From positions 96,001 through 160,000 of the forward strand of contig CAWJZV010000007.1 of the NCBI GenBank assembly GCA_963847445.1: a stretch of DNA of 64,000 nt, in the 5' to 3' direction. Of the stretch, positions 30,698-60,492 are shown one piece after another. Numbering within the stretch: the stretch's first letter is position 1; each line of letters opens with the position of its first letter. The notes below the pieces were generated by a model. That model had not been told where the DNA came from and searched no databases. It was given only the letters and a program-made list of their open reading frames with translations. A program made the translations under genes and the position numbers. The DNA is from an uncultured delta proteobacterium (GTDB lineage: Bacteria > Desulfobacterota > Binatia > UBA9968).

Positions 30698-30956
30698 CCG
30701 CCGCCGGGGTCGACACCATGTAGCTGGTAGTGGTCGCTCATCAAAAAAGGCATTGATCTCAACTTTCCAGAGCCGGGCGAACTCGGCGAATCAGTCGAGA
30801 AAACTTTGCCGTCCTTGGTCTTGCAGAAAGAGGTCCCGGCGCGATTGGCATGATTAATAACGTGGTAGAACGCCCCCGGGAATTCAATGCGCAGCTGGTC
30901 CATGCGGATCGTTTATTTCATGCCCGGTCGTCCGTGAAGAGTTAAACGTAGACTTG
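30698..30956 (-). mobile_element. Decayed RAYT N-terminal stub A with conserved upstream end
   Basis: LRIEFPGAFYHVIN...HY.L.VSTPAA; upstream sequence shared with stubs C and D. Confidence 0.8.
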
Positions 30957-31133
30957 TTTTTGTTCCGCCGCGGATGCAGTTTCCCCGCGCGGAAAATTAC
31001 TAGCTGCAGGCTTTGACTTTAGCGACCGCGAATCCTATTAGGTAGCCTTGCGGGGGAATTGGCGGTGCGCCGAATTCACCGACTCGACCGCGCATCTGTC
31101 CACCTAACTCCAGCGCGAAGAAAGGTGATCGCG

Positions 31134-32195
31134 ATGAGAACTGGAAATGCTCGTTTAGATGCAATTGCTGGGTTGGCGATTGGCATATCTTTGGCGATGC
31201 CGCAGTGGGCTTTCGGGCAGGCGTCGTTTTATGAGGGCAAGACGATTACGATCATCCAGGCGCGCGCGGCCGGCGGCACGGGAGACCTGCGCGTGCGCGC
31301 GCAGACGCCGTTTCTGCGAAAATATCTTCCGGGCAATCCGACCATCGTTCACGAGTTCATGGATGGCGGCGGCGGCCGAAAAGCCGCCAATCACATATAT
31401 CGAACGGCCCGCCCGGACGGCCTGACCATCGGTGCCATGACGCCGGGATTTGTGCCGAGCGCTGTGCTTGGCGAGACCGGTGTTTTATACGACCTCGACA
31501 AAACCATTTATCTAGGCTCCCCCGACGGCGGCGCTCAATGGATCTTCGCGACGCGCAAAGCTCTCGGCGCCGACAGTTTAGCCAAACTACGGGCCCTATC
31601 GGGATTGCGCATCGGCGCCCAGGCAGTGGGGCATCCGATTTATCTTACCGGCCGCCTGTTCGCCTACTTGCTCGGCCTCAAGGATCCGAGATTCGTCACG
31701 GGTTACACCACGCAGGAAATCGATATCGCGTTGCTGCGCGGCGAGGTGGACGGCAGATCTAACCTGGCTGAGACCGTCGTCCATCGCAGCCCCGAGTGGA
31801 TTTCCAAGCAGCTCGTCGACTTCCACGCGATCATCGAAGTGCAAAAAGGCATCCGGCCGTCTCAGTTTGCCCAGGTGCCCGAGCTCGAGACCTTCACTAA
31901 AACGGATCTTGACAGAAAGATCCTGGCGCTGCTGCGCGGATTCCGGGCCACCGGATCGCCCAACATTCTGCCGCCGGGAACGCCCAAAGACCGGGTGCAA
32001 ATTCTCCAAGAAGCGATGCGCAAAACTTTCAGAGACCCGGAATTTCACAAGGAATTTAAGAAGCTCGCCGGCGACGACGCGGCGCCGCTGATGGCCGAGG
32101 AGTTGGAGAAGGCGATCACAGACATGCCACGGGAACCAGAGGTTATCGAAGCATTCAAAAAACTTTCCGGCGCCGATCCCTTGCCGGCGCGGTAA
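31134..32195 (+). CDS. Tripartite tricarboxylate transporter substrate-binding protein (TctC/Bug-like)
   Basis: FYEGKTITI, GGTGD, LPGNP, PDGLT, PPGTPKDR. Confidence 0.85.
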   Translation: MRTGNARLDAIAGLAIGISLAMPQWAFGQASFYEGKTITIIQARAAGGTGDLRVRAQTPFLRKYLPGNPTIVHEFMDGGGGRKAANHIYRTARPDGLTIGAMTPGFVPSAVLGETGVLYDLDKTIYLGSPDGGAQWIFATRKALGADSLAKLRALSGLRIGAQAVGHPIYLTGRLFAYLLGLKDPRFVTGYTTQEIDIALLRGEVDGRSNLAETVVHRSPEWISKQLVDFHAIIEVQKGIRPSQFAQVPELETFTKTDLDRKILALLRGFRATGSPNILPPGTPKDRVQILQEAMRKTFRDPEFHKEFKKLAGDDAAPLMAEELEKAITDMPREPEVIEAFKKLSGADPLPAR

Positions 32196-32230
32196 GCTGT
32201 CGCAATCTTTCGACTTTCGTCCGGCGTAAT

Positions 32231-32278
32231 GGGGTCGTTTCCTGCATTGCCACATACATGCGATAGCAAGACCTAATC
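32231..32278. repeat. Degenerate REPIN (inverted REP pair)
   Basis: GGGGTCgtttccTGCATTGCCACAT-ac-ATGcGatAGCAAGACCTAATC. Confidence 0.65.
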
Positions 32279-32419
32279 TTTTCGACTTCGTATTCGTTCC
32301 AACCCGTCAAATCGTTTGTGCGAGTTGACAGAACGCCGGCCGTGCGGCTATTTTCCGCGAGAACAGCGCGCGCCGACAGTGCGCGATCTAGGGGCAGCCA
32401 ACGGAAGGGAAAAGATACC

Positions 32420-33607
32420 ATGAAACGAAGCAGCGAAAGAATTCTCACGTCCCATGTCGGCAGCCTGGCCCGAGCCGACTCCCTGATACCTCTGCTGCGG
32501 CTAAAAGAACAGGGACAGCCTTACGACCGCGACGAGCTCGCGCGGCGGGTGCGCGAGGCGGTAACCGACGTGGTGCGGCAACAGGTCGAAGCGGGCATCG
32601 ATATTGTCACCGACGGCGAGCAGGGCAAATCGAGCTTCTACGGCTATGTCGTCGAACGCTTCAGCGGCTTCGAGCGCAAGCCGCCCGCTCCGGGCAACGA
32701 GATGCGACCGCGGTCGGCGGGCAGGGAATATCTCGCTTTTCCCGACTACTACGCCTGGTCCGAACGCATCGCCGAACCGTTTGGCGGGCGCGGCGGGCGC
32801 GGGCGCGGCGTCGATACTTGCACCGGGCCGGTCAGCTATAAAGGCCACGCGGCGGTTCAGGCCGACATCGCCAATCTCAAAGCGGCGACAAAAGGCCGCA
32901 CCATCGAGGACGTCTTCATGCCTGCGATCTCGTCTGCCTACGTCGCGGCGACTTTTGCCAACGAATACTATCGCTCCCACGCAGAGTATGAGAAGGCCGT
33001 ATCCGACGCGCTGCGCGAAGAGTACAAGGCGATCGTCGACGCCGGATTCATTCTCCAGATCGACGATCCGCGCCTGGTCACCTATTATATGATGCACCCG
33101 GAGCTTAGCGTCGCCGACTGCCGGAAGTGGGCGGCCGAGCGCGTCGAAGTCATCAACGACTCGCTCCGCGGCATCCCGTCCGAGAAGGTCCGCTTTCATA
33201 CCTGCTACAGCATCGATGTCGGTCCGCGCATCCACGAGATGGCGCTGAAGGACATCGTCGACATCCTTCTGCAGATTAACGCCGGCGCCTATTCGTTCGA
33301 AGCGGCGAACCCGCGGCACGAACACGAATACCATGTCTTCGAGCGCGTCAAGCTGCCCGCCGGTAAGATCCTCATGCCGGGCGTGATCAGCCATACCACC
33401 AACCTGGTGGAGCACCCGGAATTGATCGCCGAACGAATCGTGCGGTTCGCAAAAATAGTCGGGCGTGAGAACGTCATCGCGGCAGCCGACTGCGGCTTTG
33501 CCGCCTCCGCTCTGCGCTTCAACGATACCCATCCCAGCGTGGCCTGGCTTAAGTTTGCCGCGTTGGCGGAGGGCGCCCGATTGGCGACCCGCGAGCTGTG
33601 GAATTGA
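32420..33607 (+). CDS. Cobalamin-independent methionine synthase II-family (single-barrel) protein
   Basis: THVGSL-like motif, TDGE.GK, LQIDDP, FHTC, EAANPRHEHE, ADCGF. Confidence 0.88.
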   Translation: MKRSSERILTSHVGSLARADSLIPLLRLKEQGQPYDRDELARRVREAVTDVVRQQVEAGIDIVTDGEQGKSSFYGYVVERFSGFERKPPAPGNEMRPRSAGREYLAFPDYYAWSERIAEPFGGRGGRGRGVDTCTGPVSYKGHAAVQADIANLKAATKGRTIEDVFMPAISSAYVAATFANEYYRSHAEYEKAVSDALREEYKAIVDAGFILQIDDPRLVTYYMMHPELSVADCRKWAAERVEVINDSLRGIPSEKVRFHTCYSIDVGPRIHEMALKDIVDILLQINAGAYSFEAANPRHEHEYHVFERVKLPAGKILMPGVISHTTNLVEHPELIAERIVRFAKIVGRENVIAAADCGFAASALRFNDTHPSVAWLKFAALAEGARLATRELWN

Positions 33608-33789
33608 GTGGCATGAGAGCGCCGCGCTCAAGCGTTATCGTGTCTGGTCAATTTACCGAAGCGGTATCCGCACGGACCAGGAAAGTCGAGAAGTAGAAGT
33701 TTGCCCCCGCGACCGAGAACTGGCGAATCTGAGTTCCGGCGTCCCGACCGATCACAGAAAGTGGGGCAGAGCCCTGTTCTTTTCGGTCA

Positions 33790-35643
33790 TCATTCTCCGT
33801 CTGCGGTTGTTTGACTATGGGCGTTCCATAGCACCGCAACGCCGACCAGGCTCGACACTATCGAAGCGGTGAACACAGCGATCTTGGCGGCGGCGAAATC
33901 GCTGGGCACCGGGAACGCCTGGCCCGAGATGAAAAGCGACATGGTAAAGCCGATACCGGCGAGCGCGCCGGCGCCGGCGAGTTGCCGCCAGGAATATGCG
34001 TTGGGCTTTTGCGCAAGCCCCGCCCGCACGGCCAAAGCCGACGCCGCAATGAATCCCAACGGCTTGCCGATCACCAGCCCAAGCGTGATCGCCAGCAGGA
34101 GTGGTTCACGGCCGCTCAGGACATCCGGCGTTATCGCCACACCCGCGTTCGCTAATGCAAAGATCGGCAGCACGAGATAGCTCGAACGCGGGCCGACATT
34201 GCGCAACAGCCGGTCCGCCGGAGATTCCAGACGATCATGGATCGCATCCAAGGCGCGCAGCGCGGGCACCGAAGCCCCTTGGCGCAATTGCTCGCCGCCG
34301 TGGCGCGCTTCCGCCGCCAGTATCGTATCCGCCTGCATCGCTAGCGTTCTAAAATCCGGCGGCGGCCGCGTCGGAATAAACGCGGCCAATAAGACGCCGG
34401 CCAACGTCGCGTGCAAACCGCCGGCGTGAACGCAAGCCCACAGGCCGACGCCCAGCAATAGATAAACTGACACGTTATAAACGGCCGATCGGTTCAGCAA
34501 GGCCAGCGCTCCGGTGAACGCTGCCGCAGCGGCGAGGTAGGCAAAATTCACAGCACCGGAATAAAAGAGAGCTACGACGATGATCGCCCCGATGTCGTCG
34601 ACAATCGCGGCCGCGGTCAAAAAGATACGCAGCTCGATCGGCACTCGCCTTCCCATCATCGCGATCAGAGCGACCGCGAAGGCGGTGTCTGTCGCCGTCG
34701 GCACGCCCCAGCCGATGGACCACGGCCCTGGTCGGATGACCAGCAGATAAAGCAGCGCCGGCACCGCCATGCCGCCGATCGCCGCTGCGATCGGCAACGC
34801 CGCGGAGCGCCAGCTAGCCAGATGACCGACGGTGAATTCGCGTTTGATCTCAAGGCCGACGACGAGGAAAAAGATCGTCAGCAGACCGTCATTGACCCAA
34901 TGCAGCAACGACATGCGAAAATCGGACTCGCCGAACGTGAAGCCGAAATAAGTGTGCCAAAATGCATCAAAGCCGGGGCCAAGCGCCGAGTTGGTGAGCC
35001 CAACGGCCAGGACCGACGCCAGCAGCAGCAACACGCCGGTCGAAGGCGCCCAGCTTGCAAAGCTCAGCGCGGCCGTGCGCACGCGATAGCCGAGCGGCGC
35101 GAGCATCGCATCGGAAAAAGAGCTTTCATCCCAGGGGCCGTCGTAGCGCCGTCCGTTGATGAAGAAGGTTGGCGTGAATTGCACACCGCTGGCGCGCGCG
35201 CTCTCGACATCGCGATCAACGCGGGCCTTGGCTCGCTCGATCGTCGCTTGCGTTTCTTGCCCATCTAGCGCATTTTGCCGCGCCAGGCCCAGCTCATCTG
35301 CGACGGCGCGCAGGTCATCCTCGGTCAGGGTTTTCGAGCGTGTCATCAGCGCGACATGGGCATCCCAGAACTTATCGGCATCCGCGATGGATTCGACCAG
35401 TTCGGCGGCGCGCCGGGCAATGTCGCTGCCGGTGATCGGGCGATGCCGGAACACGTAGCGCAGACGATCGCCGAACTCGCCGCGGACCTGGACAATGCGC
35501 TCGTTAGCGGCGCGGCAATGCGGGCAGTCGTAACTGCCATATTCCACAAGCGTGATCGGCGCCTCGTTCGGGCCGAGAATGTGATCCCGCCGGTCGTCCA
35601 CGAGATCATTGAGACGATGGTTCGTTTCGTTTAACCCTGACAT
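33790..35643 (-). CDS. nhaA: Na+/H+ antiporter NhaA with N-terminal DsbA/thioredoxin domain
   Basis: YGSYDCPHC and [12 protein letters not shown], then WVNDGL, GLEIKRE, ATDTAF, IVDD, GIGFTMS. Confidence 0.92.
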
Positions 35644-36004
35644 CTCAGCTCCAATAATGAGGCATGGCTGGCGTTCTCGTTTATCCCAGGAAACCGCAAC
35701 CCACGACTGCTAGTTTTCCTTCGACCTACCATGCACTAACGGAAATTGGCTCCAGCACCGGCCGGGTTACGCAGTATCGAAGGATGCCCTTCGCCTGGCC
35801 GTCGGCGGCCGTCTGAACCCATCGATCCAATCAGGCAGGTCAGACGACACTAACGTATCGACAAATTTACGCAGCATGGCTGGCGAATTCAAACCCACGA
35901 GGTGATCGCTGGGCCAATGTTTGCGGCTCAAAGAGCGGTGGACGCCTTGTCATGATCGCTTGGTTGGCCGCGTGATTTCATGAGGGAGAGCTAAGGGATG
36001 TGTC

Positions 36005-36200
36005 CTGATAAATGGTAATGATTGCGGATTATGCAGTAGGCTTAGATCTCAACGTTTCCAGAGCCGGGCCGATCTCGACGAATCAGCGGAGAAAACTTTG
36101 CCGTCCTCGGTCTTGCAGAAAGATCTCCCGGCGCGATTGGCCATGACTGATGACTGGTAGGAAACGCCCCGGGGTATTCAATACGCAGCGGCCAGGCCAT
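36005..36200 (-). mobile_element. Decayed RAYT N-terminal stub B
   Basis: MAWPLRIEYPGAF...; nucleotide similarity to stubs A and D; may continue, more decayed, toward 35900. Confidence 0.75.
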
Positions 36201-36302
36201 GCAGTTTTTACCCCTACTCGCGCGTCCGCAACTCGCTGACTTGTGCCGCGAAACCATTTATCTTATCTTTCATGCTTCGATCCGCGTACCACCGACAACT
36301 CC

Positions 36303-37386
36303 ATGGAGTCAGAGATCACAAACTGCGCCAAGCGCGCCGAGCAGTTGAACGGCCACGATCCGCCGCACCGGCATCAATCCCAACTGCTGGTACATGATCG
36401 CCAAGGCATCGGACGTCCGCGAAAAGCCGCTGGGGCGGGAGATTTGGCGCCAACCGGTCGTCCTCTTTAGAACTCGAGACGGCAAACTGCGCGCGTTAGA
36501 GGATCGCTGCGCGCACCGGCTCGTGCGGCTCAGCCACGGGCGCGTCATCGATGACAAGATCGAATGCGCCTATCATGGCTGGCAATTCAACGACGCGGGC
36601 CGGTGCGTTCACGTGCCCCATCTCGCGGCCAAAACCAGCCTGCCCAATTGTCGGGTTAGATCGTTCCCGGTTCTCGAAAAGCACGGCTTCGTATGGATTT
36701 TTCTCGGCGATCCTGAGGTGGCCGCGACCGTCGCGCCGATGCGCATGAGCGAATGGGACGATCTCAACGAAATTCCCAGTTGGGTAAGACTGACCTCGCG
36801 CGCGCATTTTTCCTACCTGATCGAAAACTTGATGGACATGTATCACGGCAGCCTGCACGCCCAGTACCAGGTGTGGACCGCGCAAGCGCTCAAGGAGGTC
36901 GTCGAGGCCGATGATCGAGTGACGGCAATTTATGACGCCACCACGTACTATCGCGTAAAGGATCTCGCCTCGATTTTAGAGCTCTTCATTCCGCCGCTGC
37001 GGAAGCTTCGCTCCGCGCCTTTGACCGTGACCTATGAATATCCTAACTGGAAATCGACGTTGGGCGACGATTTCAAAATCTTCTGTCTGATCCGGCCCGT
37101 GAACGAGCGCTTCACCGACGCCTATCTTATTCACTATACTTCGCTGGCCAAATTTGACGGCTTAAAAAAAGCGCCGCTTGTCGTGCGGCGTCTGATCAAG
37201 CGGCTTCTAACCAACGTGGCAAAGCGGCTGTTGGCCAATCTGGTGCGCCAGGATGTCTTGATGATCGAGGAAGAGCAGCAGGCGTTCGACGCCGACCCGC
37301 TCCTGCAGCCGACTGAAATCAACCGCACCGTCCGCCGCGTTCAACGACTGATTCGTCGCCAAGCCTCCGCCGTGGAATCTCGATAA
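36303..37386 (+). CDS. Rieske non-heme iron oxygenase, frameshift near start
   Basis: DRCAH...CAYHGW Rieske ligands; ENLMDMYHGSLH mononuclear Fe motif. Confidence 0.88.
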
Positions 37387-37417
37387 CTCGGCTCGCGCAT
37401 CCGGGGAATTCACTACC

Positions 37418-38939
37418 GTGCTCAAAGCCTTCCTACAATCGCGCATCAGAAACAAACTTGGCGGCTATAGCGTAACGATCAACGAGGTCGATCGGCGCAA
37501 GCCGGTATCGGTTTCGCCGGCGAAGAAAGTTGCCGTGATCGGCGCGGGCCTGGCCGGTATCGGCGCCGCCTCGGTGCTCGCGGAACGCGGCTTCGAGGTT
37601 ACTCTTTTCGAGCGAAACTCCTACATCGGCGGCAAAGTCGGCTCGTGGGATGTCGCTTTCGCAGACGGCTATGCGACCAAAGTAGATCACGGCTTTCACG
37701 CCTTTTTTCGGCACTACTACAACTTACGCGCCTTCATGGAAAAAATCGGCGCGCACCAGCGCTTCAAGACCATCGACGACTACCTGGTGCTGGCGAGCGA
37801 CGGCCAAAAATATAGTTTCAAGAATGTCGAGACCACGCCGGTGCTCAACATACTGTCGCTCGGGAAAAACAAGTTTTTCCGATTCCGCGATGTCTTGCTC
37901 AATCCGCCCAGCTGGCGAATGGGCGAGTTCTTGGAATACGATGAAGCGAAGACTTTCGCTAAATATGACGGCAATGACGTTCGCAGAATTCGCCAGCGCA
38001 GCTCAACTGCCATCGCCCTTGAGACTGACCTTCAATACCTTCGCGCGCGCCTTCTTCGCGCCCGCAGAAAAGTTGAGCACGGCCGAGCTGATGAAGAGTT
38101 TTCATTTTTTCTATCTCAGCCACGATCATGGTTTGCTCTATGATTACTTCGATACCGATTATCACAGCGCGCTACTCGAACCGATCCTTAGCCATCTACA
38201 GCGCCACCATGTATCGATCCGCTTGAACCACCGGGTCGAGGGGATTGGCCGCGAAAATAATCTGTTGACCGTCGGAGCCGAGCCGTTCGACTACCTCATC
38301 CTTGCCTCGGACGTGACCGGTACAAGCAGCATTTGTCAACATTCTCCCTGGATCGAGGCCGCATCGGCAAAGACTTGGTCGCAGCTGACCTCGTTGCAAG
38401 CTTCCAGCGGTTACGCCGTGTACCGGATCTGGCTAGATCGGCGCACCGGCGACAACTTCCCCGTCTTCATTATCACCGAAAAGCGCGCCGTTCTCGACTC
38501 CGTGACCTTCTACCATCAATTCGATAACAACGCCGCGGACTGGGCGCGCCGTTCCGGCGGCGGCGTCTACGAGCTGCACTGTTACGCGCTGCCCGACGGA
38601 ATTGCCGATGCCGATGTCAAAGCGGCTTTTTGCGCAGAGCTTCATGGCTTTTTTCCCGAGCTTCGCACAGCGACGATGATTCATGAGCATCTGCAGGTCA
38701 GGCGTGATTTCACCGCCTTTTATACCAACCTGCATGAGAACAGGCCCGAGTATCGAACGGCGATCGCCAATCTCTATCTTGCCGGCGATTGGGTAAAAAC
38801 CGGCACACCGGCGATGCTTATGGAAGGCGCCTTTACATCCGGAGTTCTTTGCGCCAACGCGATTCTGGCCCAACACGGTCTTTGCGAAGAGCCCGTGCGC
38901 TCCGTGCCAACGCGCGGGATCTTCGCAAAACTCAACTGA
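37418..38939 (+). CDS. crtU: CrtU-like carotenoid desaturase/aromatic-ring synthase (FAD oxidoreductase), frameshift near 37975
   Basis: GAGLAG, LAERG, HGFHAFFRHYYNL, YELHCYA, LAGDW...LMEGA resemble isorenieratene synthase; lycopene cyclase adjacent. Confidence 0.7.
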
Positions 38940-38940
38940 A

Positions 38941-39619
38941 ATGTCATACACCTATCTTTTCATCAATGTCTTCATTATCGCCATCCCGCTTGCACTGACA
39001 TTTGACAAGCGAACAGCCTACTTCCGCCAGATCCCCGCCGTCGGCTTTGCGACCGGTGTCGTGAGCGCCTGCTATCTGATTTGGGACGTTCTCGTGACCG
39101 CCCGCGGCGAATGGAGCTTTAACGGCAAATATCTGACCGGCGTTCACTTGCTGAACATCCCGCTCGAAGAAGTGCTTTTTTTCATCACCGTGCCTTATAG
39201 CTGCCTGTTCATCTACGAGGTGGTTTTATTTGCGACTACAGACAGATTTTACAAAATGTCGACTCCGGTATTGATCACGGTGATCGTCCTGCTGGCCGCG
39301 GCGAGTTTGGCGCTGCGTGATCAAGGATACACTTCGAAAGCGCTGGCCTCGTGCAGTTTTTTTCTCACCGTCGCCTACTTGGTTGGACCGTCCGCTGCTG
39401 ACCAGCCGCCGTTATTGGACGTGGTTGGCGATCTGTTACATCCCGTTTCTGCTGGTCAATTCAGTGCTGACCGCGCTGCCGGTTGTGGAGTACAATCCTA
39501 CGGCGATATTCGGCCTGCGCGTGTTCACGATTCCCATCGAAGATTTTTTCTACAACTACGCGATGTTGTCCTTCTACCTGCTGTTTTATCGCCGGCGCAG
39601 AAAATCACTAGAGCCATAG
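38941..39619 (+). CDS. Fused heterodimeric-type lycopene cyclase (two domains), frameshifted
   Basis: WDVL...WSFN...IPLEEVLFFITVPY and second domain IPIEDFFY. Confidence 0.85.
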
Positions 39620-39902
39620 CAGGCAAAAACGTTTTTGCCGCGCCGCCGCTGAGCATAGTTTTTCGTTTGTATAGTATTGTCCGGCGCTGATGCGGTCCGC
39701 TGCTGGGTCGCGTCTTGTATAGCGACAAATGGGTTATTGCCAGAGCTGGCGCCGCACTTGGGTCCTCGGACGCCGCCGCCCGGTGCTGCGCCGACTCCCG
39801 CGCGATTGACTTTCGCAACCTGAGGCGAGACATTTTTGCATGTTTCCCGCGCCGGCTACATGTCCATGACAACCGTGCTGTCTTGAAGACTGGAGGTGTT
39901 CA

Positions 39903-40658: not shown

Positions 40659-40724
40659 GAGTTCGCCTAGGTCGAAGTTAGATCGATTAGTCAATTATCG
40701 AAGAGAGCTTCCAACCGGTGGCTT

Positions 40725-42729: not shown

Positions 42730-42769
42730 TTGTTGCGCTATTGCTATTGGTTGACTCTCGGAACTGATT

Positions 42770-49328: not shown

Positions 49329-51356
49329 ATGCAGTTCGCTGCCACTCATCATCGCCCGCTGTCAGCGCAAGTCCGTCTTCGCGCCGATGTGCGCCGAACC
49401 ATCCTCACGGATGAAGCCGTGTCATTCGAGTTCACGCTGGTCGGCCTCGAACCGCGCACCATGTCGGCGGTGGTCCTGCAGGAGTTGGCACCCTCCGGAT
49501 GGATCGATCACAGCACGATCTGGACGCCGCCGCAGCAACCCAGCGGCAGCGGCCGCGTGCGGCTGCACGCGGGCTCCACGGCCATCCGCTGTCGGCTGTC
49601 GTCGTTCGACAATCGCGCCAAGCCCGCGTTCACGCCGCCCCTTCCCGTCGACACACGCGAAGCCCCGCGGATTCTCATCCTGCTATCGATGGGCGGAGCA
49701 TGGACTGGGGCGCCACCGACTCCGCCGGGAAACCCGAACGCACAGGCGGTGCTCGCGGATCACGGTATCAAGGTCGACGAAGCCCGGTGTCGGCTTCGGG
49801 GCATCTCCTCGGAGCTGATCAGAACGCTGACGACCAATCGCAACGTGCAATGTAACGACCTCTGCGACGAAAACTGCACGAACTTCTTAGAGCACCTCGG
49901 TCTCAGACTGATGAACGACGAAAGCCTGGCGAGCGAGCTCAAGAGCATCCGCAATTCCGGCTACTGCAACAGGCGCAGCAACGACGAAGGCCTCGCCAAC
50001 AAGATCGTCGTTGGCAAATGGGAGAACTCCGAGCTCGAGCCCGTGCGTCCCGCCGGCATCCGGACCTGGGAGGACATCCTCGACGAGTACCGCGCCGACG
50101 GCGGGCGACACGTCATCCTCGTCGGCCAGAGCCATGGCTGCGCCAAGTTCGCCGGCATGACGAGAGACCACTGGCGGTGGGGTAATGATTTGTCGGTCGA
50201 CCTGTTCGTCTCCTGGGACGGCGCTGACCTCGGGGGAGGTGTGTCCAGCGTCGGCGACGTGCCGAAGACTGTGCTCGCCTTCTATCAGCGTGACGATCTC
50301 GCGCATTGGCAGAACGGCCAGCACATCGAGCAGGCCACCGAGGAGCACGACCTGACGAAACTTCTCAGCCACAACGCCATCGCGCGCAGCGCCTTCGTGC
50401 ACGACAAGACAACGACCTTCATCCGCGACACCGTCAGCTCGGTGCGCGGCAAGGCCCGTGGCGGCGATGTTGCCACTTACAAAATTGATGCCGGCGGCTC
50501 CCTCGGCGAGCGCATCGAGCTGCGCCGCCTATCCGCCGATTTATCACCGACGTTTGCCAGTCGGCTCGGCGAAACCAGTTATCTGCACTTTCTCGCCCAC
50601 GAGAGTGGCCGGGCGATCACGCGGCGGATCGACGACCACGGCATGCTCGCCGCGGTAGCCAGCGAAGCCACTCTCTCACGGGGACTCACGGCTGCAACAT
50701 CCTTCACGATTGGCGACAGCGCATTGGCGCTGCTCGCCAGCGCGGACGAAAACAACACGGCTATCAGGCGTCTCGGCACGGATGGGTCGATCGGGCCGCG
50801 AGTCTATCCCGGGACTATCGTCGAGCAAGCATCAAGCCTCTTGAAAGGGACATGGGATCAGGTTTGTGCTTTTCGCGCAGGCAATCGCGCGTTCGTGGCA
50901 CTTGCCGGTGCGAGCGAAAATCTCCGCATCGTGCGCCTGCAGACGAACGGGCGGCCCGAGGCAGTGGTGTCGAATCCCGCCGGGGTCTTTGGCCTTGGCC
51001 GGCTCATGGCGATCGCATCGTACACCATTGGGGCATCGACCTTCATGTTCACCTTCGGGGACGGCCAATCGGTCTATCGGATGAACGACGACGGCTCACG
51101 CGGCTCGCGGGTGTGGCACGAAGCCCCTCCGCTGGCGCAGATAACCGTCGCCACCGTCGTTGCCCATCTTCGTGTCGGGACCGCACAATCGCTCTTGCTG
51201 CTCGACGCACTTGGCGGCCTGCACATCCGTCGTATCGCCGCCGACGGTAAGATCGGCGAGACTCTATACCGCGCAAACATCGGACGCATTGGCCGACAGT
51301 CGATCGCAACCTATGTGATCGACGGCGTCGGCTACCTGCTGGTCCTCACGCGCTAA
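49329..51356 (+). CDS. Alpha/beta-hydrolase-like domain plus six C-terminal beta-repeat units (start uncertain)
   Basis: VILVGQSHG nucleophile elbow; six repeats of the type I.R+..DG..G. Confidence 0.65.
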   Translation: MQFAATHHRPLSAQVRLRADVRRTILTDEAVSFEFTLVGLEPRTMSAVVLQELAPSGWIDHSTIWTPPQQPSGSGRVRLHAGSTAIRCRLSSFDNRAKPAFTPPLPVDTREAPRILILLSMGGAWTGAPPTPPGNPNAQAVLADHGIKVDEARCRLRGISSELIRTLTTNRNVQCNDLCDENCTNFLEHLGLRLMNDESLASELKSIRNSGYCNRRSNDEGLANKIVVGKWENSELEPVRPAGIRTWEDILDEYRADGGRHVILVGQSHGCAKFAGMTRDHWRWGNDLSVDLFVSWDGADLGGGVSSVGDVPKTVLAFYQRDDLAHWQNGQHIEQATEEHDLTKLLSHNAIARSAFVHDKTTTFIRDTVSSVRGKARGGDVATYKIDAGGSLGERIELRRLSADLSPTFASRLGETSYLHFLAHESGRAITRRIDDHGMLAAVASEATLSRGLTAATSFTIGDSALALLASADENNTAIRRLGTDGSIGPRVYPGTIVEQASSLLKGTWDQVCAFRAGNRAFVALAGASENLRIVRLQTNGRPEAVVSNPAGVFGLGRLMAIASYTIGASTFMFTFGDGQSVYRMNDDGSRGSRVWHEAPPLAQITVATVVAHLRVGTAQSLLLLDALGGLHIRRIAADGKIGETLYRANIGRIGRQSIATYVIDGVGYLLVLTR

Positions 51357-51571
51357 CCATGACTCACGGGCTCTACTCGAAAGTTCGATCGAGTCTGGGC
51401 GCGACCCAACAGAAATTGACGGTGAGAGCTGCACATGAACAAGTATGGAGCGCTGAGGCAACTGGCCATATTCTCGGTTGCAAGCTTAGCGCCAGACCAT
51501 CTGGGTTAGCGAGAAACAACCTTTGGTCCGTATGGCTGAAAAAATTCTTCTAGCGGGCTTTACTGCTGCCG

Positions 51572-51965
51572 TCAAATTTCGCTGGCAGGCGGCGAGAGTT
51601 TGGCCTGAGGAAAGGTGGCGCTAAGCACCCAGTCATCGTCCGAATGCAGGACGCGCACCTCGGCGCAATGCCCGATCGCTGCCGCGAGGCTGCCGCCGGT
51701 TTTGGCCTTCTCCAATGGTACCGCCGCGGCCATTAAGCAAACCTTGCCGACCGCCGGCCCGCCGTCCTGGCGTAACCGATCGATAGTCTCGAGCGCAACG
51801 CGGCTACCGAGTGAATGGCCGATGAAATGGACAACGTGAAGATTGGGCATGGAATGAAGATGGCGCGCCAAACACCATCCCGCTTCTCTCTGACGTCTCC
51901 ACGGTCGCGGCATAGATGAGAAAATCCGCATAGTCCAACCAGCCCCACCATGCGGCGTCGCCAGG
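51572..51965 (-). pseudogene. Internal fragment of an alpha/beta hydrolase (DUF900-like)
   Basis: HFIGHSLGSR, LMAAAV, LHSDDDWVL; joined to RAYT stub C. Confidence 0.65.
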
Positions 51966-52248
51966 CGACACCAGTAGATGGTAATGTTTGCTCATCAAGC
52001 AGTATGCATATTCTTAACTTTGCAAAGCCGGCGATTTGGCGAGCAAGTCGAACAAACTTCGCTGTCCTTTATCGGCCGGGATGAGTCCTGCGCGGTTGGC
52101 CAGAATCGATGACGCGGTCAATTGCCCCGCGATATTGCATGCGCATGGATCAGGTCATGAGGATCGTTTATTTCATGCTTGGTCATCTGTCTAGAGTTAA
52201 CGTTTACAATCGGTTTGTTCTTCGATGGGGCAAGGCAAGACCTGACCT
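51966..52248 (-). mobile_element. Decayed RAYT N-terminal stub C plus REP half-site
   Basis: AYCLMSKHYHLLVS; shared GGATCGTTTATTTCATGC upstream; GCAAGACCTGACC at 52235. Confidence 0.75.
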
Positions 52249-52291
52249 CGGGGACAATGCATGACCAACTCTCGGCCCAACGCGCTTTTAC

Positions 52292-53365
52292 TCAACGCTC
52301 CCATCTTTTCCGGGATACCACTTCGGCGATGGCGGTCGAAGTCTTTATGGCGCCCTTGGCGACTAGCTGGACGAGAAACTCGGTTGCGGCGCGTGCGCCG
52401 GTTGCGTTGGTAACTCGCTGCGCGGCGGCTGAGACCTGCTCGACGGTCGCGATCGCTGTGCCGGTCAGTGCCGAAGTGGCGCTCCCCGTGGTGTTCTTCG
52501 CGGCGTTCCAAATCACCACTCCGATCCGCTCCGCGCCTTGCTTGGCGACCGAGCCGAGCATACCGGCTGCTTCCAGCGTTGCTGTATGCCGCAGGGATTT
52601 AGCAGCGGGCTTGATCACGCTGCCGCAATAGCCGCTGGCGAGACAGCCGATTCTCAGGGTGAGAAACGCGTTGACCGTGCCATCGACACAGGACGTCGTG
52701 ACCAAACTAGCGACCTGTGCGAATCCGGGAATCGCGGCGACGACCGAGTTCGCTAACACCGGCGCAAGCAAGGGCTCGATCAGTTCGCTGAGGTCCATAT
52801 CCTCGACATTCTGTGCCACGAATGCCGCAGCAGCAACGTTGCCGTAGAGCGCAATAAGATCGCCTGACGCGGGCCGCTGCCAATAGAGGTGGGCGATCTG
52901 CCAAACCAAGCGACACTGCGTTACCAAGACCATCAGGCCATCGAGCCGGCCCGACTGCGAGACTGCGGTGCTCAGAAACACTGCCATGGCGGTATCCGCG
53001 GTTTTTTGACGGGAGAGTTGAGCCAGTTCCGCAAGAGCGGGTCCGACGGTCGCAGCCGTAAGTTGCCGGTTATTGAGATTTCTGTTTCGTCGAAGGCGCT
53101 GCGCAAGCTCTTCCAAGTACGCGGCTTGCGCGGAAGCGTCTTCTGGGGGCGGCGGAACAAGCCGCTTTGGAAGCCGAGCGAAAGTAACGACGGGAATGAG
53201 AATGCAGGCGGCGTATAGAGCCAGCAGAAACCAAAGCAAAGCCTGCCCCATCAGCGGATGCACGGCGCTCACAAAGGCGACGGTTTCCCTGGTCTCGCGG
53301 GCAATGACTAGCGCAACCGCTATCAGCACAAGGATGGCGACCGGTATGAGTATGCGTTTTAGCAC
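52292..53365 (-). CDS. YcjF/DUF697-family membrane protein
   Basis: VFLSTAVSQSGRLDG, RP, GTVNAFLTLRIG. Confidence 0.8.
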   Translation of the reverse strand: MLKRILIPVAILVLIAVALVIARETRETVAFVSAVHPLMGQALLWFLLALYAACILIPVVTFARLPKRLVPPPPEDASAQAAYLEELAQRLRRNRNLNNRQLTAATVGPALAELAQLSRQKTADTAMAVFLSTAVSQSGRLDGLMVLVTQCRLVWQIAHLYWQRPASGDLIALYGNVAAAAFVAQNVEDMDLSELIEPLLAPVLANSVVAAIPGFAQVASLVTTSCVDGTVNAFLTLRIGCLASGYCGSVIKPAAKSLRHTATLEAAGMLGSVAKQGAERIGVVIWNAAKNTTGSATSALTGTAIATVEQVSAAAQRVTNATGARAATEFLVQLVAKGAIKTSTAIAEVVSRKRWER

Positions 53366-53431
53366 GACGCCTGCAAAGATACTTTAGTTAAGCGCTACCG
53401 ACAAGTTTCCGATGGTAGACCAAACGCTCTT

Positions 53432-55016
53432 CTAGCTCGGCTTGATTAGACCGGCGCGAAGAATTTTCCCGACCGCGCTTTTCGGTAGGCTTGCGGCGAA
53501 CTCAATGTCGTGAGGGATTTTATACGGGGCGATTTGTCCGCGCAGGCTTTCGCGGATGGATTGGGCGAAATCAGCCGACGGTTTGTAGCCGTCGGCCAAG
53601 ACCACGACGGCGTGAATCCTATTGCCGATATCGCTATCGGGTATCGGCACGACCGCGGCTTCGATGATCGCGGGGTGCTTCTGCAGGGCGTTTTCGATTT
53701 CGGTCGGGGATATGAAAATGCCGCGGCTCTTGAAGCAGTCGTCGCGCCGGCCGGCTATGTAGAAGTAGCCTTCGCTGTCCTGATAGGCGAGATCGCCGGT
53801 GAGATACCAGCCGTTTCGAATCACCGCCTCGGTTCGCTCCGGGTCTTTGTAATAACCGAGAAACAGTCCCGGATCCGAGGTCGAAATCGCAAACTGGCCG
53901 AGCTCGCCGCCGACCACGGGTTTAAACTCGTCGTCGAGAATCGCCACGCCGACTCCCGGAAGTTGTTTGCCGACCGATCCCGGTTTAACCGGATCTCTCA
54001 CGCCGTTGCCGATCACCAGTTGGTATTCGGATACCCCGTAGTGCTCGTACAATTCAGAACCGACCCGCCGCTTCCATTCCGCATAGGTCGCCTCGCGCAG
54101 AGCCTCGCCCGTCGAGTGGGAACAGCGCAGGCTTGTTAGATCGTGCTGCTTCTCGAACTCGGGCATCGCGAGCAGGCGGCGATAAATCGTCGCGACGCAA
54201 TGGAGCACGGTGACTTTGAACCTCTCGACAGCAGTCAAAACGTTTTCCGCTGTGGCGCGGCCGGGAAGGATCGCACCGGTGACCCCGTTGCGCAGCGGGA
54301 AAAGCAAATTGTGGCCCAGGGCGCTGATAAAGCTCCATTCGCCAGTGGCCATGACCACGTCGTTCTCCTGCGGCGGCAAACGGTAGCGGTTCAAATCACC
54401 GAGTGCGACAATCCAGCGATGGGCATGAACGATACCTTTGGGTTTGCCGGTCGTTCCGGAGGTGTAAACGATGAAAGCGGGCTCGTCGCTGCGCGTATCG
54501 GCCGAAACCACGGCCGTGGAAGACTTTGTCTCCAACCTTGCGAATGGAATTTCACTCCCGTCCGCTTCGCCGGCGCAAACGACGTGCTTGAACAAAGTCG
54601 CTGCCGCGCAGTTCGCGCACGGCGTCATGGCGCGATACTTCGGTGAAGATTAATCGCGGTCTGGTTTGCTCGAGCACGGCGGCCAGCTCGACTGCGGTAA
54701 GCAGAGAGTTGACCAGAACGGGAATCACGCCGAGCTTGACCGCTGCGAGAAACGCGACGGCAAACTCCGGCGAGTTGCTCATCTTGATGAGCACGAGATC
54801 GCCGCGCTGCAATCCCAGATCGAGCAAGCCGGCGGCCACGTGAATCGACCCGTTGCTGCAACGATTCGTAAGTGACGACTCCGAACTCGCCGACGAGCGC
54901 GATCCGCGCACCGCAACCGCGCGCGATCGGATCGTCGAGCACATTCGTGCGCGAGATTCAATTTTTCCGGCGCCACGCGATAGTTGTCCGCGCTGATTGG
55001 AGGAAGAGTCGATCAC
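53432..55016 (-). CDS. Acyl-CoA synthetase (AMP-forming, benzoate-CoA-ligase-like), frameshifted
   Basis: YTSGTTGKPKG, YGVSE, TGDL, GRRDD, PKSAVGK. Confidence 0.88.
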
Positions 55017-55019
55017 CGG

Positions 55020-55934
55020 CTATTTCTTGGGTTTCTTTGCCGGGCCTTTTTTCGGAAACGGCCAGTCGGCATCGTAGGGATAGGTATAGCGCGGCGGGCG
55101 CTTTTCCACGAAGGCGCGCATGCCCTCTTGGCAGTCTTTGGTTCGGGTGATTTCCAGCACGGCATCGAGCTCCTGCTGATAACCTTCGTCGGTGCGATTC
55201 CAGTTCCAGTACATTTTCACCAGCCGTTTGGCTTGCCGCACGGACAAATAGGGATTTGCCGCGATGCGCCCGGCAAGAGCGAACGCGGTATCGAGAAGCT
55301 TGGCCGCCGGCACGACTTCTTCGACCAGACCGATGCGCAATGCTTCTTTGGCGTCGATGATCTCACCGGTGAGAATCAGACGCATCGCTCGACCGATGCC
55401 GATCAACTTGGGCAAATTGCGCGCGCCGCCGCTTTCGGGCACGAAGCCGGCCGGCACCGCCACTTCGCCGAAGCGCGCGCGATCCGAGGCGATGCGCATG
55501 TCGCACAGCGTCGCCATCTCGAGACCGACGCCGACCGCCGGGCCGTTGATGGCGGCGATCGTCACTTGCGGTAAATCTTCGAGCTTGCGCATGGCGCTCT
55601 GCAACACCCGGTGGCGCAGATCGTTGAAAAAGTACTCGGCCATCTCCTTGTACGGGCCAGTGATACCCATGGAACCTTCGAAGGCGCCGAGCACGTCGCC
55701 TTCCGACTTGAGATCGCCGCCGGCGCAAAAGCCCCGCCCTTCGCCGGTCAGAATCACGACCTTGACGATGGAGTTGCGCGCGATCTCGCTGCATAAGGCA
55801 TCGAGCTCCAGGCGCATGAGCGGGTCGACGGCGTTGAGTCTCTCCGGGCGATTCAAGGCGATGACGCCGATGCACGGTTCGCCGGGGTTATTAGGGTTGT
55901 CGTGCACCGACCATTTGAGCGCTTTGTAATCCAT
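55020..55934 (-). CDS. Enoyl-CoA hydratase/isomerase family
   Basis: LNRPERLNA, FCAGGD, AINGPAVGVG, EGMRAFVEKR. Confidence 0.9.
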   Translation of the reverse strand: MDYKALKWSVHDNPNNPGEPCIGVIALNRPERLNAVDPLMRLELDALCSEIARNSIVKVVILTGEGRGFCAGGDLKSEGDVLGAFEGSMGITGPYKEMAEYFFNDLRHRVLQSAMRKLEDLPQVTIAAINGPAVGVGLEMATLCDMRIASDRARFGEVAVPAGFVPESGGARNLPKLIGIGRAMRLILTGEIIDAKEALRIGLVEEVVPAAKLLDTAFALAGRIAANPYLSVRQAKRLVKMYWNWNRTDEGYQQELDAVLEITRTKDCQEGMRAFVEKRPPRYTYPYDADWPFPKKGPAKKPKK

Positions 55935-56111
55935 CGAGGGCTCCTGCGGACGATTGATAGAGTGCGTCGATCTTTTCGACCACGTGACATCCCCTTGGCA
56001 AAGAGAGATCGACGGGAATTGCGGGTTACCCCGGTGAGCGAAAATCCCTCTACCTGCCGTCATCAAGCGGCGAGATCGATTTAGATGCTCGAAGCACCCG
56101 TTCGAAACTTC

Positions 56112-57791
56112 TTATTTCTTTTTCTGCTGGCCGTAATAAGAAGTGTTGACCGCGACTTCGTCGGTGCGTTTTCGTTCGCGGGCAATCTTTTCGCCGGTCT
56201 GCCAGAACTCGCCGGCGACGGCGAGCTTCGCCTCCTCGTCAAGCTCCGGATTCCAATCGCCGAGCGAGTAGCCGTACCAGGGCGATTCGGGCTCCAATTT
56301 CGGCAACTCGAGCCTCTCCCAGAGTTTGCGCGCGCGCTCCATGTACTCCTTCTTCGGCAAAGAAATCGGCGGAAACGTTTCTTTCAACGTCGCATCCCAG
56401 AGCAAACAGGAATCGTCGGCGCCGCCGCGCGCGTCATGGCGCGGCGCATGACCGACATCGGTGCCGCGGATGATTTGCACGTCGCGGTGCGGTTGCGAGC
56501 GGTAGCCGAGCGCCCAGAACACCGCATCGAGATTCTCGGGATCGATATCATCGTCGACGGCGATGACGATCTTCGACATCGACGGGCGAAAAGTGACCGC
56601 GGCCATCAAGGCACGCCAGACCTCGGCCTGGCTCGGCTGGCGCATCTGAATCACCGTCAGCTTCTGCGTCGCCGTCAGCGGCTCGTGCAGCATCACCCGG
56701 GTCACGCAGTTGATGCCGAGAACGTTTTTCAGATGATCGAGATAGAGCGGCTCGTAGGCCATCTTCTTGATCACGCTCGACTCCGACGGCGTCACCTGGC
56801 TGATGATCGAGCAGAGAATGGCTTTTTTGCGCCGCGTGATCGCGGTGACTTCCATGTAGGGATTGTATTCCTTCGGGTTGACGTGGCCATGGGATTCGCC
56901 GAACGGCGCTTCCGGCTCGAGATATTCCGTCGAAACAAAACCTTCGATGATGATCTCCGCGTCGGCGGGAACCATCAGCGGCACGGTCTTCGCCTTGACG
57001 ACACGGATCGGCGCTTTCACGAGTCCGCCGGCGACCGCGAACTCATCGACGTCGTAAGCAAGCTTTTGCGCGGCAACATAAGAGATCGCCGGCACGCCGC
57101 CGATGCACAGCGCCGCCGGCATCTTTTCCTTGCGCGCGCGATACTTTTCCCAATGCACATAGATACCTTGGCCCAATTCCAGCGAAGGATTACAGCCGAC
57201 CCGGTCGCGCGCCTTGATCATCGCCCGGTAGGTGCCGATGTTGTGAATCCCGCTGTCGGGATCTTTGGTAATGTAGTGCGCTGCGCTGATGTAGGGCGCG
57301 TTGTCCCAACCCGGCGTCGAGATCGGCACCGGAATACCATCGAGTCCCCGGCCGGGTTCTTTCAGCTCGTCGCCGGCAATGACGATCTCGTGCACCGGCG
57401 CCGCCTCGGAAGGAATCTCGACCGGCGGGACCGGATTCGCTTTCGCTTGCGCCCAGAGCTGGTTGACTTTTGTCGGATCGGTGCCGAGACCAATGCCGTA
57501 GATCCGCCGGTTCGCCGCCAGAATGCCGATGGCGACCGGAATATCGTAGCGCTTGCCGCTAGCGTCCACCGGCTGTTCGAACAAGAACGCCTTGCGGTCT
57601 TTCTCTTTGATGCCGCCGCGAAATTGCCAGCGCACCAACGGATGCATCTCCTGGTCTTTGTCCACCGGCTCGTCGATCCGTATCAGCAAGCCCTCTCTTT
57701 CGAGTTGCTCCAAGTGATCGTGCAGATCGGGATACCCGCGCGCCGGAATGCTTGATGCCTTCTCCGCCACTGCTAATTTCTTTTTCGCCAT
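56112..57791 (-). CDS. UbiD-family decarboxylase
   Basis: HPLVRWQFRG, NIGTYR, EAPFGESHG, VDDDIDP. Confidence 0.9.
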   Translation of the reverse strand: MAKKKLAVAEKASSIPARGYPDLHDHLEQLEREGLLIRIDEPVDKDQEMHPLVRWQFRGGIKEKDRKAFLFEQPVDASGKRYDIPVAIGILAANRRIYGIGLGTDPTKVNQLWAQAKANPVPPVEIPSEAAPVHEIVIAGDELKEPGRGLDGIPVPISTPGWDNAPYISAAHYITKDPDSGIHNIGTYRAMIKARDRVGCNPSLELGQGIYVHWEKYRARKEKMPAALCIGGVPAISYVAAQKLAYDVDEFAVAGGLVKAPIRVVKAKTVPLMVPADAEIIIEGFVSTEYLEPEAPFGESHGHVNPKEYNPYMEVTAITRRKKAILCSIISQVTPSESSVIKKMAYEPLYLDHLKNVLGINCVTRVMLHEPLTATQKLTVIQMRQPSQAEVWRALMAAVTFRPSMSKIVIAVDDDIDPENLDAVFWALGYRSQPHRDVQIIRGTDVGHAPRHDARGGADDSCLLWDATLKETFPPISLPKKEYMERARKLWERLELPKLEPESPWYGYSLGDWNPELDEEAKLAVAGEFWQTGEKIARERKRTDEVAVNTSYYGQQKKK

Positions 57792-57895
57792 GACACCTTG
57801 CTCTAAGGAATTTTCAATCGTTCGCAGCCTATAACAATTATTTTTTTCGGTAAAGGCGAGGACCATGAGTTTAGCCACACCTAACTGAACGATGA

Positions 57896-57946
57896 GGGGG
57901 GCGAGATTTGCACTGCGACAAATGTGTTACCGCGAGACCTGATCCC
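57896..57946. repeat. Degenerate REPIN
   Basis: GGGGGGCGAGATTTGCACTGCGACA...GCGAGACCTGATCCC. Confidence 0.6.
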
Positions 57947-58117
57947 AATGTTTTCCTTGCTCGGCCGCTCGATAGCATGGTGCGCCAGCGCGAATATCGG
58001 CGTTGCACGTCAACAACCTGGAGCGTTCAAGGAGATCTTTCCTGGAGCAGCCGTGACCCCGAAGGTTCGCGTAGCCAAAGCTCGCCACCTGTGGCATCTT
58101 GGTCTATAGTCAATGCC

Positions 58118-59594
58118 ATGAAACACGCGATGGATCCTGAAGGCCAACGACTGCCGATCAAACTGGATACGACTTCGAACGGAGAATTTGTCCCCGTTCC
58201 GCTCTCGCCGGCCAATCGCGCCGCCAACCGCATGGCACACGAAGCGGCGAGTCAAAACGCCAAGCGCTTGGCTGTGAGTCGTCGCGATTTTCTTATCTCC
58301 GCTTGCGGCGCGGCGAGCACGCTGCTGGCGTTCAATGCGGCAAACGCCGCGGTGGGGAAGCGCGGCGGTTTCTTCCAACTCGAGGCCGAGGCTGCCCTCG
58401 AGCCGCAGCTCGCGCAGGCGAGGATCGGCGGCAAGGGTGAGTTTATCTTCGACGTGCAGGGGCACTTCGTCGATCCAACCGGGGCTTGGGTCAAAGCAGC
58501 GCCTGCCGATGCTTTCAAATGGTCGCCCAAAGCCGGCTGCGCTCTCGCCGCCAAACCCGATGCGCGCAGTTATCTCAACTGCCTCGGCCCCGAGGAATTC
58601 GTCAAGGACGTGTTTCTCGACAGCGATACCGACATGATGGTGCTCTCGTTCGTGCCGTCGCGCCGTGATTCCGAACCGCTCACGATCCAGGCCGCGGACG
58701 CGGTGCGCCGCATTGTCGACCGCATGGAAGGCTCGCATCGCCTGCTGGTGCACGGCCGGGTAAACCCCAATCAGCCTGGCGATCTCGAAACAATGGACGA
58801 GCTGAAAGAACGCTGGAAGGTGAGCGCGTGGAAGACCTATACCCAGTGGGGCGTCGATGGCAAGGGTTTCTTTCTATCTGACGCCATCGGCACGCGCTTC
58901 ATCGAGAAGGCGCGCGCGCTCGGCGTCAAAGTGATCTGCGTGCACAAGGGACTGCCCTTCGGCAAACAATCCTACGAGCATAGCCAGTGCAGCGACATTG
59001 GAGTTGTTGCCAAGCGCTTCCCCGACGTGAGTTTCCTCGTCTATCATTCGGGTTTCGTGAGCGGCGTCCCGGAGCGCGCTTACACCGGGCGCGGTGCCAG
59101 CGACGGCATCGATACCCTGATCCGATCGCTGGTCGAGAACGACGTCAAACCCAACAGCAACGTTTACGCCGAGCTCGGCAGCACCTGGCGCTTCCTGATG
59201 CGCGACCCCGATGGCGCAGCGCATGCGCTTGGCAAACTCCTTAAACATTGCGGCGAGGACAACCTGCTCTGGGGCACCGACTCCATATGGTACGGCTCGC
59301 CGCAGGATCAGATCCAGGCGTTTCGCACTTTTCAGATCGCGCGCCGAATTGCGCGCCAAGCACGGCTATCCCGAGATCACCCCGGCGCTACGCGCGAAGA
59401 TCTTCGGGCTGAACGCAACGCGGCCCTACGGCATCAGCGCCGACGAAGTAAAGAAGCGCGCTTCCAGCGATCATGTCGCGCGGGAGCGTCTCGCCTACCG
59501 CGAGCGCCCCGAACCGCACTATCTCACCTACGGACCCAAAACCCGGAGGGAATTTTTGAACCTGCTGCGCTGGAATGGCGGCTCGCGCGCCTAG
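58118..59594 (+). CDS. Amidohydrolase with internal twin-arginine motif, frameshift near 59345
   Basis: SNGEF.P, SRRDFL, FDVQGH, CVHKG, VYHSG, WGTDSIWYGSP. Confidence 0.85.
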
Positions 59595-59667
59595 CAGCTT
59601 TTGCCGGAAAATCGAACCGCCGCTTACGTTGTTTAGCGCTCATCGCAATAAACCAACAGCCTGGCAT

Positions 59668-60210
59668 ATGAACCCTCTGCTTTCCCGAACGGCGAAGTAC
59701 GTCGCGGTGCTCGTAATCATTACGTTGACCGCGACGTACTTTTACTTCAGGTTCATTGGCTGGAGCCATCCATTTGCCAAGTTGATCGGTGCTTATAGGT
59801 ATCACGTTGTTACACTCGGGGATTATGTCCGATACAAGCGAGATCCAAAACGCTTTAATAATGATTCTTCGGCAGCCCTGAGCTTTGATTGCGAGCGAAT
59901 CCGAGACGATTTCGTCAAGCTGACTCAATCGATAATCTCACCAGAGCTATCGACATCAACAGAGACAATCGTTTCGCGGGAAGGCAGCACCCTTCATCTT
60001 GGCGATCCCAGCGTGTCTGGCAGTGAAGCATTTGCCGCGTGGAAGAGCCAAGCAATCAATCTAGCTACGATCCAGCACCCAAACGAGGCGGGCCACTACG
60101 GGACTGTGCTGCAAGCTCTGTTTACATCTATCAGGTTACACGGACGCAATGCGGATGAAGAGTTTAGCGTCGATACCAAAAGAGGCAGTAAATTTGATGC
60201 ATGTGGGTGA
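59668..60210 (+). CDS. Hypothetical membrane-anchored protein, possibly truncated
   Basis: N-terminal TM segment, lower GC, ends about 10 bp before RAYT stub D. Confidence 0.45.
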   Translation: MNPLLSRTAKYVAVLVIITLTATYFYFRFIGWSHPFAKLIGAYRYHVVTLGDYVRYKRDPKRFNNDSSAALSFDCERIRDDFVKLTQSIISPELSTSTETIVSREGSTLHLGDPSVSGSEAFAAWKSQAINLATIQHPNEAGHYGTVLQALFTSIRLHGRNADEEFSVDTKRGSKFDACG

Positions 60211-60220
60211 GCCACATTCA

Positions 60221-60492
60221 CCCGCCGCCGGGGTCGACACCAGTAGATGGTAATGGTTGCTCAAAAAGCAGTAGGCATGGATCTCAATTTTCCAGAGCCG
60301 GGCGATCTCGGCCAGTAAGTCGAGAAAAGTTTGCCGTCCTTTTATCTTCAAGAAAGATGTCCCGGCGCGATTTGGCCACGATTGATCACGTGGTAGAACG
60401 CCCCGCGGTATTCAATACGCAGCGGTCGGGCCATGCGGATCGTTTATTTCATGCCCGGTCGTAGGTCAAAAGCTAAACCTAGACTTGACCCC
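60221..60492 (-). mobile_element. RAYT N-terminal stub D (best preserved) with end motif TAGACTTGACCCC
   Basis: MARPLRIEYRGAFYHVINRGQ...LWKIEIHAYCFLSNHYHLLVSTPAAG. Confidence 0.85.

Follow-up and report, generated by a model that had tools for sequence, protein, structure and literature searches.

The 64,000-nt stretch analysed here, called the window (G000:C7:96001-160000, from a 7.19-Mb, 48-contig genome assembly that is 91.8% complete), contains four short remnants of an HUH/Y1 nuclease gene, named stubs A to D. The stubs are 5′ remnants of a known kind of element, TIRYT, of about 1.05 kb, which carries a Y1 gene flanked by terminal inverted repeats (TIRs) and belongs to Y1 nuclease subclass 2.1 (2.1.2). 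A preliminary description of the window had taken the stub itself, about 270 bp long, for a non-autonomous element copied in trans, and this model was largely refuted. From the comparison of sequences, we lean towards a reading in which the stubs are TIRYT remnants, with D and perhaps others shortened in place, successive copies of the element inserted head-to-tail within a single variable island, and gene blocks were shuffled by way of circles.

Stub remnants and their full-length parent

The window was compared with genomes G004, G008, G014, G015, G018, and G045 and with metagenome contigs L033, L034, L035, L040, and L047. These five contigs were kept from 15 metagenome pattern matches (element match >30 nt) and the other 10 were discarded; L033, L035, and L040 are Joint Genome Institute (JGI) contigs, and runs X1, X2, X3, X4, and X6 were examined as contigs. 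The subfamily of the stubs was named T2 and that of the gene at 41856 was named T1, both being subfamilies of TIRYT. Stub ends were counted on the 1060-nt T2 parent taken from G004. Feature coordinates are collected in Table 1.

All four remnants noticed earlier were present on the minus strand, with slight coordinate changes for B and C, and A, C, and D shared a 5′ flank as described. A fifth stub (E), a short way outside the window, was found when the whole G000 genome was searched by BLAST; elsewhere only a 39-nt end was detected. Three T2 3′ remnants were also located just beyond the window. The word with which D begins (GGGGTCAAGTCTA) had been called REP-like and is a TIR, not a repetitive extragenic palindrome (REP). 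The stubs end at least 45 codons ahead of the Tyr, and many single-base indels were seen in them.

The nearly identical cut point reported for A, C, and D was confirmed (ends at 276, ~275, and 277 on the parent, a spread of 3 nt), and it does not extend to B (254) and E (236), which stop 20-40 nt earlier, or to the orthologues described below. Three of five ends falling within 3 nt gave p values of 0.004 to 0.0002 in a post hoc test with uniform ends over 220-940 nt. The A/C/D boundary is thus sharper than chance and is likely a weak spot. The sole internal GACCCC of T2 (263-268) resembles the right end, and the A, C, and D ends lie 7-9 nt past it. In D, the internal GACCCC+9 was joined to the right-TIR GACCCC+8, with 7 extra nt. 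ACCCCT, possibly a right TIR tip, directly follows stub A. Stub E terminates in GGGTCATCCTGACCC (L001:8595-8613), in which two end tips are placed 3 nt apart, resembling the footprint of a lost copy, and a G008 piece (L004) stops 2 nt from the end spot of E. A further family of short repeats, unrelated to the stubs, was observed upstream of D at window positions 60560-60740 and has several matches on C2, C4, C15, and C17. No sites were obtained in a promoter scan of the left end of D.

In relatives, the gene continues beyond the stub boundary. Intact T2 parents were found in G004, G008 (two copies), and G018 (two copies); they encode 323 aa with Y1_Tnp and Bac_DnaA_C domains and are bordered by TIRs of ~30 bp. 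The G004 copy is ~1.05 kb long and 92% like D, and its inverted ends begin AAAGGGGTCAAGTC. The T2 protein contains the motifs NHYH, YIHHNP, and WSS, with Pfam Y1_Tnp above the cut-off and DnaA_C at 40.7 bits; a PDB search returned only a weak match to the DnaA C-terminus (E 0.01). TIRs were present on both sides of T2 and T1, and the left ends, GGGGTCAA and AGGGTCAG, each match 7 of the 8 letters of GGGGWSAS. The earlier view that the stubs stem from an HUH/Y1 element, and that this element and the gene at 41856 are different, was borne out. An intact T2 parent was looked for in the genome of the window as well, and none was present in the 91.8% complete assembly; the subfamily looks extinct in G000.

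Orthologous sites were used to follow individual stubs. At the D site, the full element is joined to block k in G004 and L034, and the stub is joined to it in G000, L033, L035, and L040. Since the full element adjoins block k just as D does, D lost ~780 bp in place; on this comparison, D arose by deletion from a full-length copy that occupied its site. All five other occurrences of D (L033, L035, L040, X2, and X3) adjoin block k. At the A site, the orthologous piece ends at 204 in G004, and in L047 an end at 63 is joined to 909-1040; at the B site, the L047 piece ends at 155. Stub-parent identities of 72-93% indicate that the stubs differ in age. Their tree was star-like, and an A+D clade was weakly rejected (approximately unbiased [AU] test, p 0.032). 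G004 has A as well but lacks the deletion of D, so A cannot be just a copy of D.

These sites also served for comparing empty and filled alleles. No clean empty site was found in G004, L034, or L047, where the copies were fuller or more decayed. A candidate empty site at C in G004 (722 bp missing) was rejected as a larger deletion in which the decayed left end of C remains, and a G004 doublet site compared with G000 C6 was not a clean empty site either. As a miniature inverted-repeat transposable element (MITE), the stub would have both ends and uniform boundaries; the right end is absent in B, C, and D and is a tip of at most 6 nt in A and E, and the boundaries lie at 236, 254, 275, 276, and 277, with orthologues at 63, 155, and 204. 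A fixed, family-wide breakpoint after the HUH motif was also rejected: raw alignment ends of 5′ pieces were spread between codons 24 and 167 (43 rows, which include duplicates, chain overshoots, and contig ends). A hump at codons 62-74 was discounted, because eight loci (L082-L089) had been picked for early ends and alignments often stop after conserved blocks.

Two explanations of the stubs themselves can be weighed on this evidence. An assembly artefact, with repeats of a full-length gene collapsed or wrongly polished, might be suspected from the single-base indels and the 48-contig assembly, and this we consider highly improbable: the junctions recur in independent contigs, and the stub copies are just 67-86% alike in pairs, except D/E (93%). 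The D junction is identical in L033, L035, and L040 and is bridged by contigs of X2 and X3, and the C and B junctions are bridged by X6 contigs, by which an artefact is refuted for B, C, and D. The end region of A is covered by two X1 contigs, with a bridging contig absent among the matches listed. The stubs are genuine and not assembly artefacts. Copying of a ~270-bp unit in trans, as first proposed, would account for the tight A, C, and D ends, the left end common to all, and the tip possibly retained by A; it is improbable, though less so than an artefact, given that the D site is occupied by the full element in two relatives, the A and B orthologues are cut elsewhere, the A+D grouping is weakly rejected, every other D sits beside block k, and neither an empty allele nor an intact parent in the G000 assembly was found.

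Table 1. Coordinates of TIRYT pieces and associated features (window positions unless a contig is given)
Feature	Position	Strand	Remarks
Stub A	30698..30956	-	T2 positions 13-276; left TIR decayed; 85% to full element
Stub B	36009..36202	-	T2 positions 64-254; no TIR remaining; 82% to parent
Stub C	51956..52200	-	T2 positions ~24-275; most decayed, 72% to parent
Stub D	60221..60492	-	T2 positions 8-277; left TIR intact; 93% to parent
Stub E	C7:168609-168841		12 kb beyond D, outside window; T2 end at 236; 92% to parent
Intact T1-type TIRYT	41815..42735	-	Gene 41856-42683, 275 aa, Y1_Tnp + HTH_23, between inverted ends
T1 end-doublet	32227..32278	-	~55 bp, two inverted T1 ends
T1 end-doublet	39703..39754	-	At a junction reordered in L047; ragged loss in X4, X6
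T1 end-doublet	44958..45012	-	Folds well, z -3.5
T1 end-doublet	57894..57948	-	Retained in G004, deleted in L034
Single T1 left end	52225..52249	-	Directly upstream of stub C
Decayed 5′ coding piece, T1-type gene	51487..51569	-	Element positions 105-192
Block k	59664..60213	.	Constant right neighbour of T2 element/stub D in G000, G004, L033, L034, L035, L040
Variable island, window part	28800..64000	.	Whole island C7 ~124.8-209.8 kb (85 kb); accessory metabolic genes, both strands
Duplicated metallo-beta-lactamase-fold gene end	48141..48809	-	Direct duplicate of 42743-43411; single in G004

The variable island and its T1 end-doublets

Between C7 126.7 and 194.8 kb, which is 0.95% of the genome, 21 TIRYT pieces were counted, and 20 of them are on the minus strand. 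They comprise five T2 5′ pieces, three T2 3′ pieces, the intact T1, two fragments of T1 coding sequence, nine T1 end-doublets, and one third-subfamily piece. TIRYT pieces were present in 18 of 76 gaps of the island and in none of 96 flanking gaps. When island junctions were compared with five relatives, 29 of 51 were reordered (G014, 12; G004, 7; L047, 4; G045, 3; L035, 3) and none was inverted, against 1 of 32 reordered in the flanks; no reordering was seen in L034 (2 junctions) or L033 (no junctions). The reordered shared blocks measured 0.5-6 kb. The earlier suggestion that neighbouring DNA moves was supported. The orthologous island of G014, another species with the same flanks, contained 15 doublets, 14 of them co-oriented, and neighbouring TIRYT copies were co-oriented in other genomes too.

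Apart from the T1 gene at 41856, no intact Y1 gene was detected in the island. The T1 protein contains the motifs NHYH, YIVLNP, and WSS and scored above the cut-off for Pfam Y1_Tnp and at 32.1 bits for HTH_23. The non-autonomous multicopy element here is in fact the T1 end-doublet of ~55 bp. Doublets were searched by profile, as a loose regular expression gave 5623 matches, was useless, and was dropped. A profile built from five copies outside the island detected eight full island copies, all on the minus strand, and a second profile with island copies included had no match in the reversed genome. In all, ~15 doublets were recorded, over half of them in this one island; the copies share 67% mean column identity. 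Homology between genomes often stops within ~150 nt of a doublet, at no fixed base. Replication-strand bias was considered for the shared direction and rejected, as 22 isolated doublets followed no rule: 5 were on the leading strand, 9 were on the lagging strand, and 8 were unclear.

The cargo of the island is ordinary metabolism, with 41 plus-strand and 24 minus-strand genes according to a home-made gene caller. Rieske, amine-oxidase-fold, and lycopene cyclase genes (window 36394-39690) move as one block, and the amine-oxidase-fold gene is apparently split over two frames near 37970. Integron integrases were searched with TIGR02249, and none of seven matches exceeded the cut-off or lay within the island. 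Rfam gave no matches in 104 kb, and no tRNA was found in the window or in four loci. A second reordered, non-inverted spot was noticed at L112 (G004:C9:270-290 kb compared with G000:C6 178-208 kb), with two co-oriented doublets at block edges.

Proposed mechanism and the case for host recombination

The Y1 enzyme would nick single-stranded DNA near the GGGGTC ends and join it to other ends. New copies would land head-to-tail at or inside older copies, and the copies would then decay. A 5′ stub could be left either by landing in an older copy or by a deletion running to the right end of an older copy, and the A/C/D boundary would reflect a weak spot that lies 7-9 nt beyond the right-end mimic, the internal GACCCC. 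Gene blocks may exit and return as circles between co-oriented element ends, much as IS26 forms clusters of copies in direct orientation (PMC7885326). The intact enzyme at 41856 would be the likely current catalyst for the T1 doublets. Related enzymes cut near their repeat and not at a fixed distance, according to the parts of PMC8266576 consulted; such imprecise nicking would fit the ragged junctions.

Nesting was examined across the relatives. For 7 of 39 5′ pieces, a left-TIR word occurred within 50 nt after the piece, compared with a background of 0.4%; piece ends were set by hand for this count, and E was mis-set there, though E too runs into a left-end word. The left neighbour of T2 plus block k changes at the left TIR among G000, G004, and L034. 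At L091 (G015:C8:235.7-245.2 kb), a third-subfamily array was found. Its three full copies (96-99% alike) and its single 5′ and 3′ pieces all point in one direction, and the right-flank cargo is duplicated. The L091 piece resembles a farther copy (94.5%) more than it does its neighbour (92%) and is therefore not a slip duplicate. Nature offers no better test of the mechanism among the loci seen than this young array. At L088, L096, L097, and L007, the left-end tip occurs in short tandem repeats before or after elements, for which re-initiation or assembly noise is possible, and at L093 (rc 13150-14870, G015) ~1.7 kb of ~73-bp tandem repeats start right after a TIRYT right end.

Several observations count against element-driven landing and shuffling. 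Pieces showed no clear enrichment at rearranged junctions, with 11/38 versus 7/38 cases at the gene level (p 0.42) and 9/18 versus 10/50 at the DNA level (p 0.029, from non-independent rows); shared events are double-counted in these tests, and the genes came from the home-made caller. The end motif is missing at many junctions, and the conserved true ends extend just 3-5 nt past GGGGTC, not 7-9 nt. The doublets fold poorly (one of four window copies beats shuffles), are lost raggedly, and have a polarity apparently opposite to that of the intact T1 gene. Duplication or an assembly artefact could account for the L090 piece, given its 98.7% likeness to its neighbour, and the third-subfamily 3′ piece of the island lies inverted. 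There is also one large G004 inversion, which ends in the island at the internally deleted T1 copy of G004. The inversion ends were placed at G004:C9:774014-774308, corresponding to ~138.1 kb and ~360.9 kb on G000:C7; one is at a T1 left end, the other is flanked by a tRNA-like sequence and part of an integrase, and the sign of the GC skew switches there.

Host recombination in a tolerant hotspot is a serious rival. The island would then be a passive graveyard: copies accumulate and decay where genes are acquired, the blocks are reordered by strain-to-strain transfer and by RecA acting on direct repeats of any kind, whether stubs or duplicated genes, and the Y1 enzyme moves only itself. The weak junction tests, the duplicated genes, and the ragged loss of doublets all agree with this, and direction would be kept as well, as recombination between direct repeats preserves it. 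We nevertheless regard it as less likely, because it leaves unexplained the shared direction of the pieces, when isolated doublets follow no replication-strand rule; copies of ~55 bp with such low identity are poor RecA substrates; and left TIRs are sharp points of neighbour change. The element's own enzyme likely drives the block shuffling. More broadly, and tentatively, TIRYT Y1 enzymes may constitute an integrase-free cassette system, in which targeting of their own ends and genes would produce one-direction arrays at fixed chromosomal loci, multi-gene blocks would be gained, lost, and reordered through single-strand circles, and stubs would be by-products of landing in older copies or of cutting at the internal end mimic; we consider this possible rather than probable.

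Comparison with known systems

The element family is already known. It was described as TIRYT/TIRtron (Di Nocera 2013, PMC3733652), as TnpA-Y1 subclass 2.1.2 (Quentin 2018, PMC6006769), and as RAYT Group 1 (Bertels 2017, PMC5581495), as far as the consulted parts of these papers go. The locus shares with TIRYT/subclass 2.1 a Y1 core with NHYH, Y..NP, and SS, DnaA_C or HTH_23 at the C-terminus, TIRs resembling GGGGWSAS, and a small family of repeats made up of TIR dimers. The patterns of the subclass are NH[YF]H and Y[IV]xxNP, with Bac_DnaA_C, HTH_23, or HTH_28 as its C-terminal HTH. It differs in the one-direction pile-up, head-to-tail nesting, and cargo reordering, which do not occur in the TIRYT literature parts consulted; no activity is reported in those parts. 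In the portions of PMC6006769 consulted, subclass 2.1 is the second largest Y1 nuclease group (14.9% of the species sampled), and no substrate or role is given for it. The preliminary description had treated RAYTs as usually single-copy and sessile, which does not suit Group 1, for which the consulted text of PMC5581495 gives the highest RAYT duplication rate (6.2%). A literature search, made without most subscription papers and supplements, retrieved no publication that describes arrays of TIRYT or the shuffling of cargo.

In REPtron RAYTs with REP/REPIN, as presented in the parts of PMC8266576 consulted, the enzyme class is the same and short doublet repeats are spread in trans, whereas the ends at this locus are TIRs and not GTAG hairpins. 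Both proteins scored below the NCBIfam NF047646 cut-off of 80, one at 75.1 and the other at 64.8. Integron cassette arrays likewise occupy a fixed locus, have gene blocks separated by imperfect hairpins in one orientation, and undergo reordering. The island differs from them in having no IntI above the cut-off, genes on both strands, multi-gene blocks, and ragged junctions.

With an intact enzyme and its ends, short doublets, and numerous natural alleles at hand, the locus makes the role of TIRYT directly testable. If TIRYTs do shuffle gene blocks, they would provide a widespread route of gene capture alongside integrons and IS26. The island resembles IS26 translocatable units (consulted parts of PMC7885326) in that cargo lies among directly oriented copies and fragments and its order shifts while direction is kept. 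At the locus, too, cargo was found to be interspersed between copies in direct orientation. IS26 uses a DDE transposase, whereas the enzyme here is an HUH/Y1 single-strand nuclease, and the locus differs further in its chromosomal metabolic cargo, its old diverged copies, and its targeting, which is putative.

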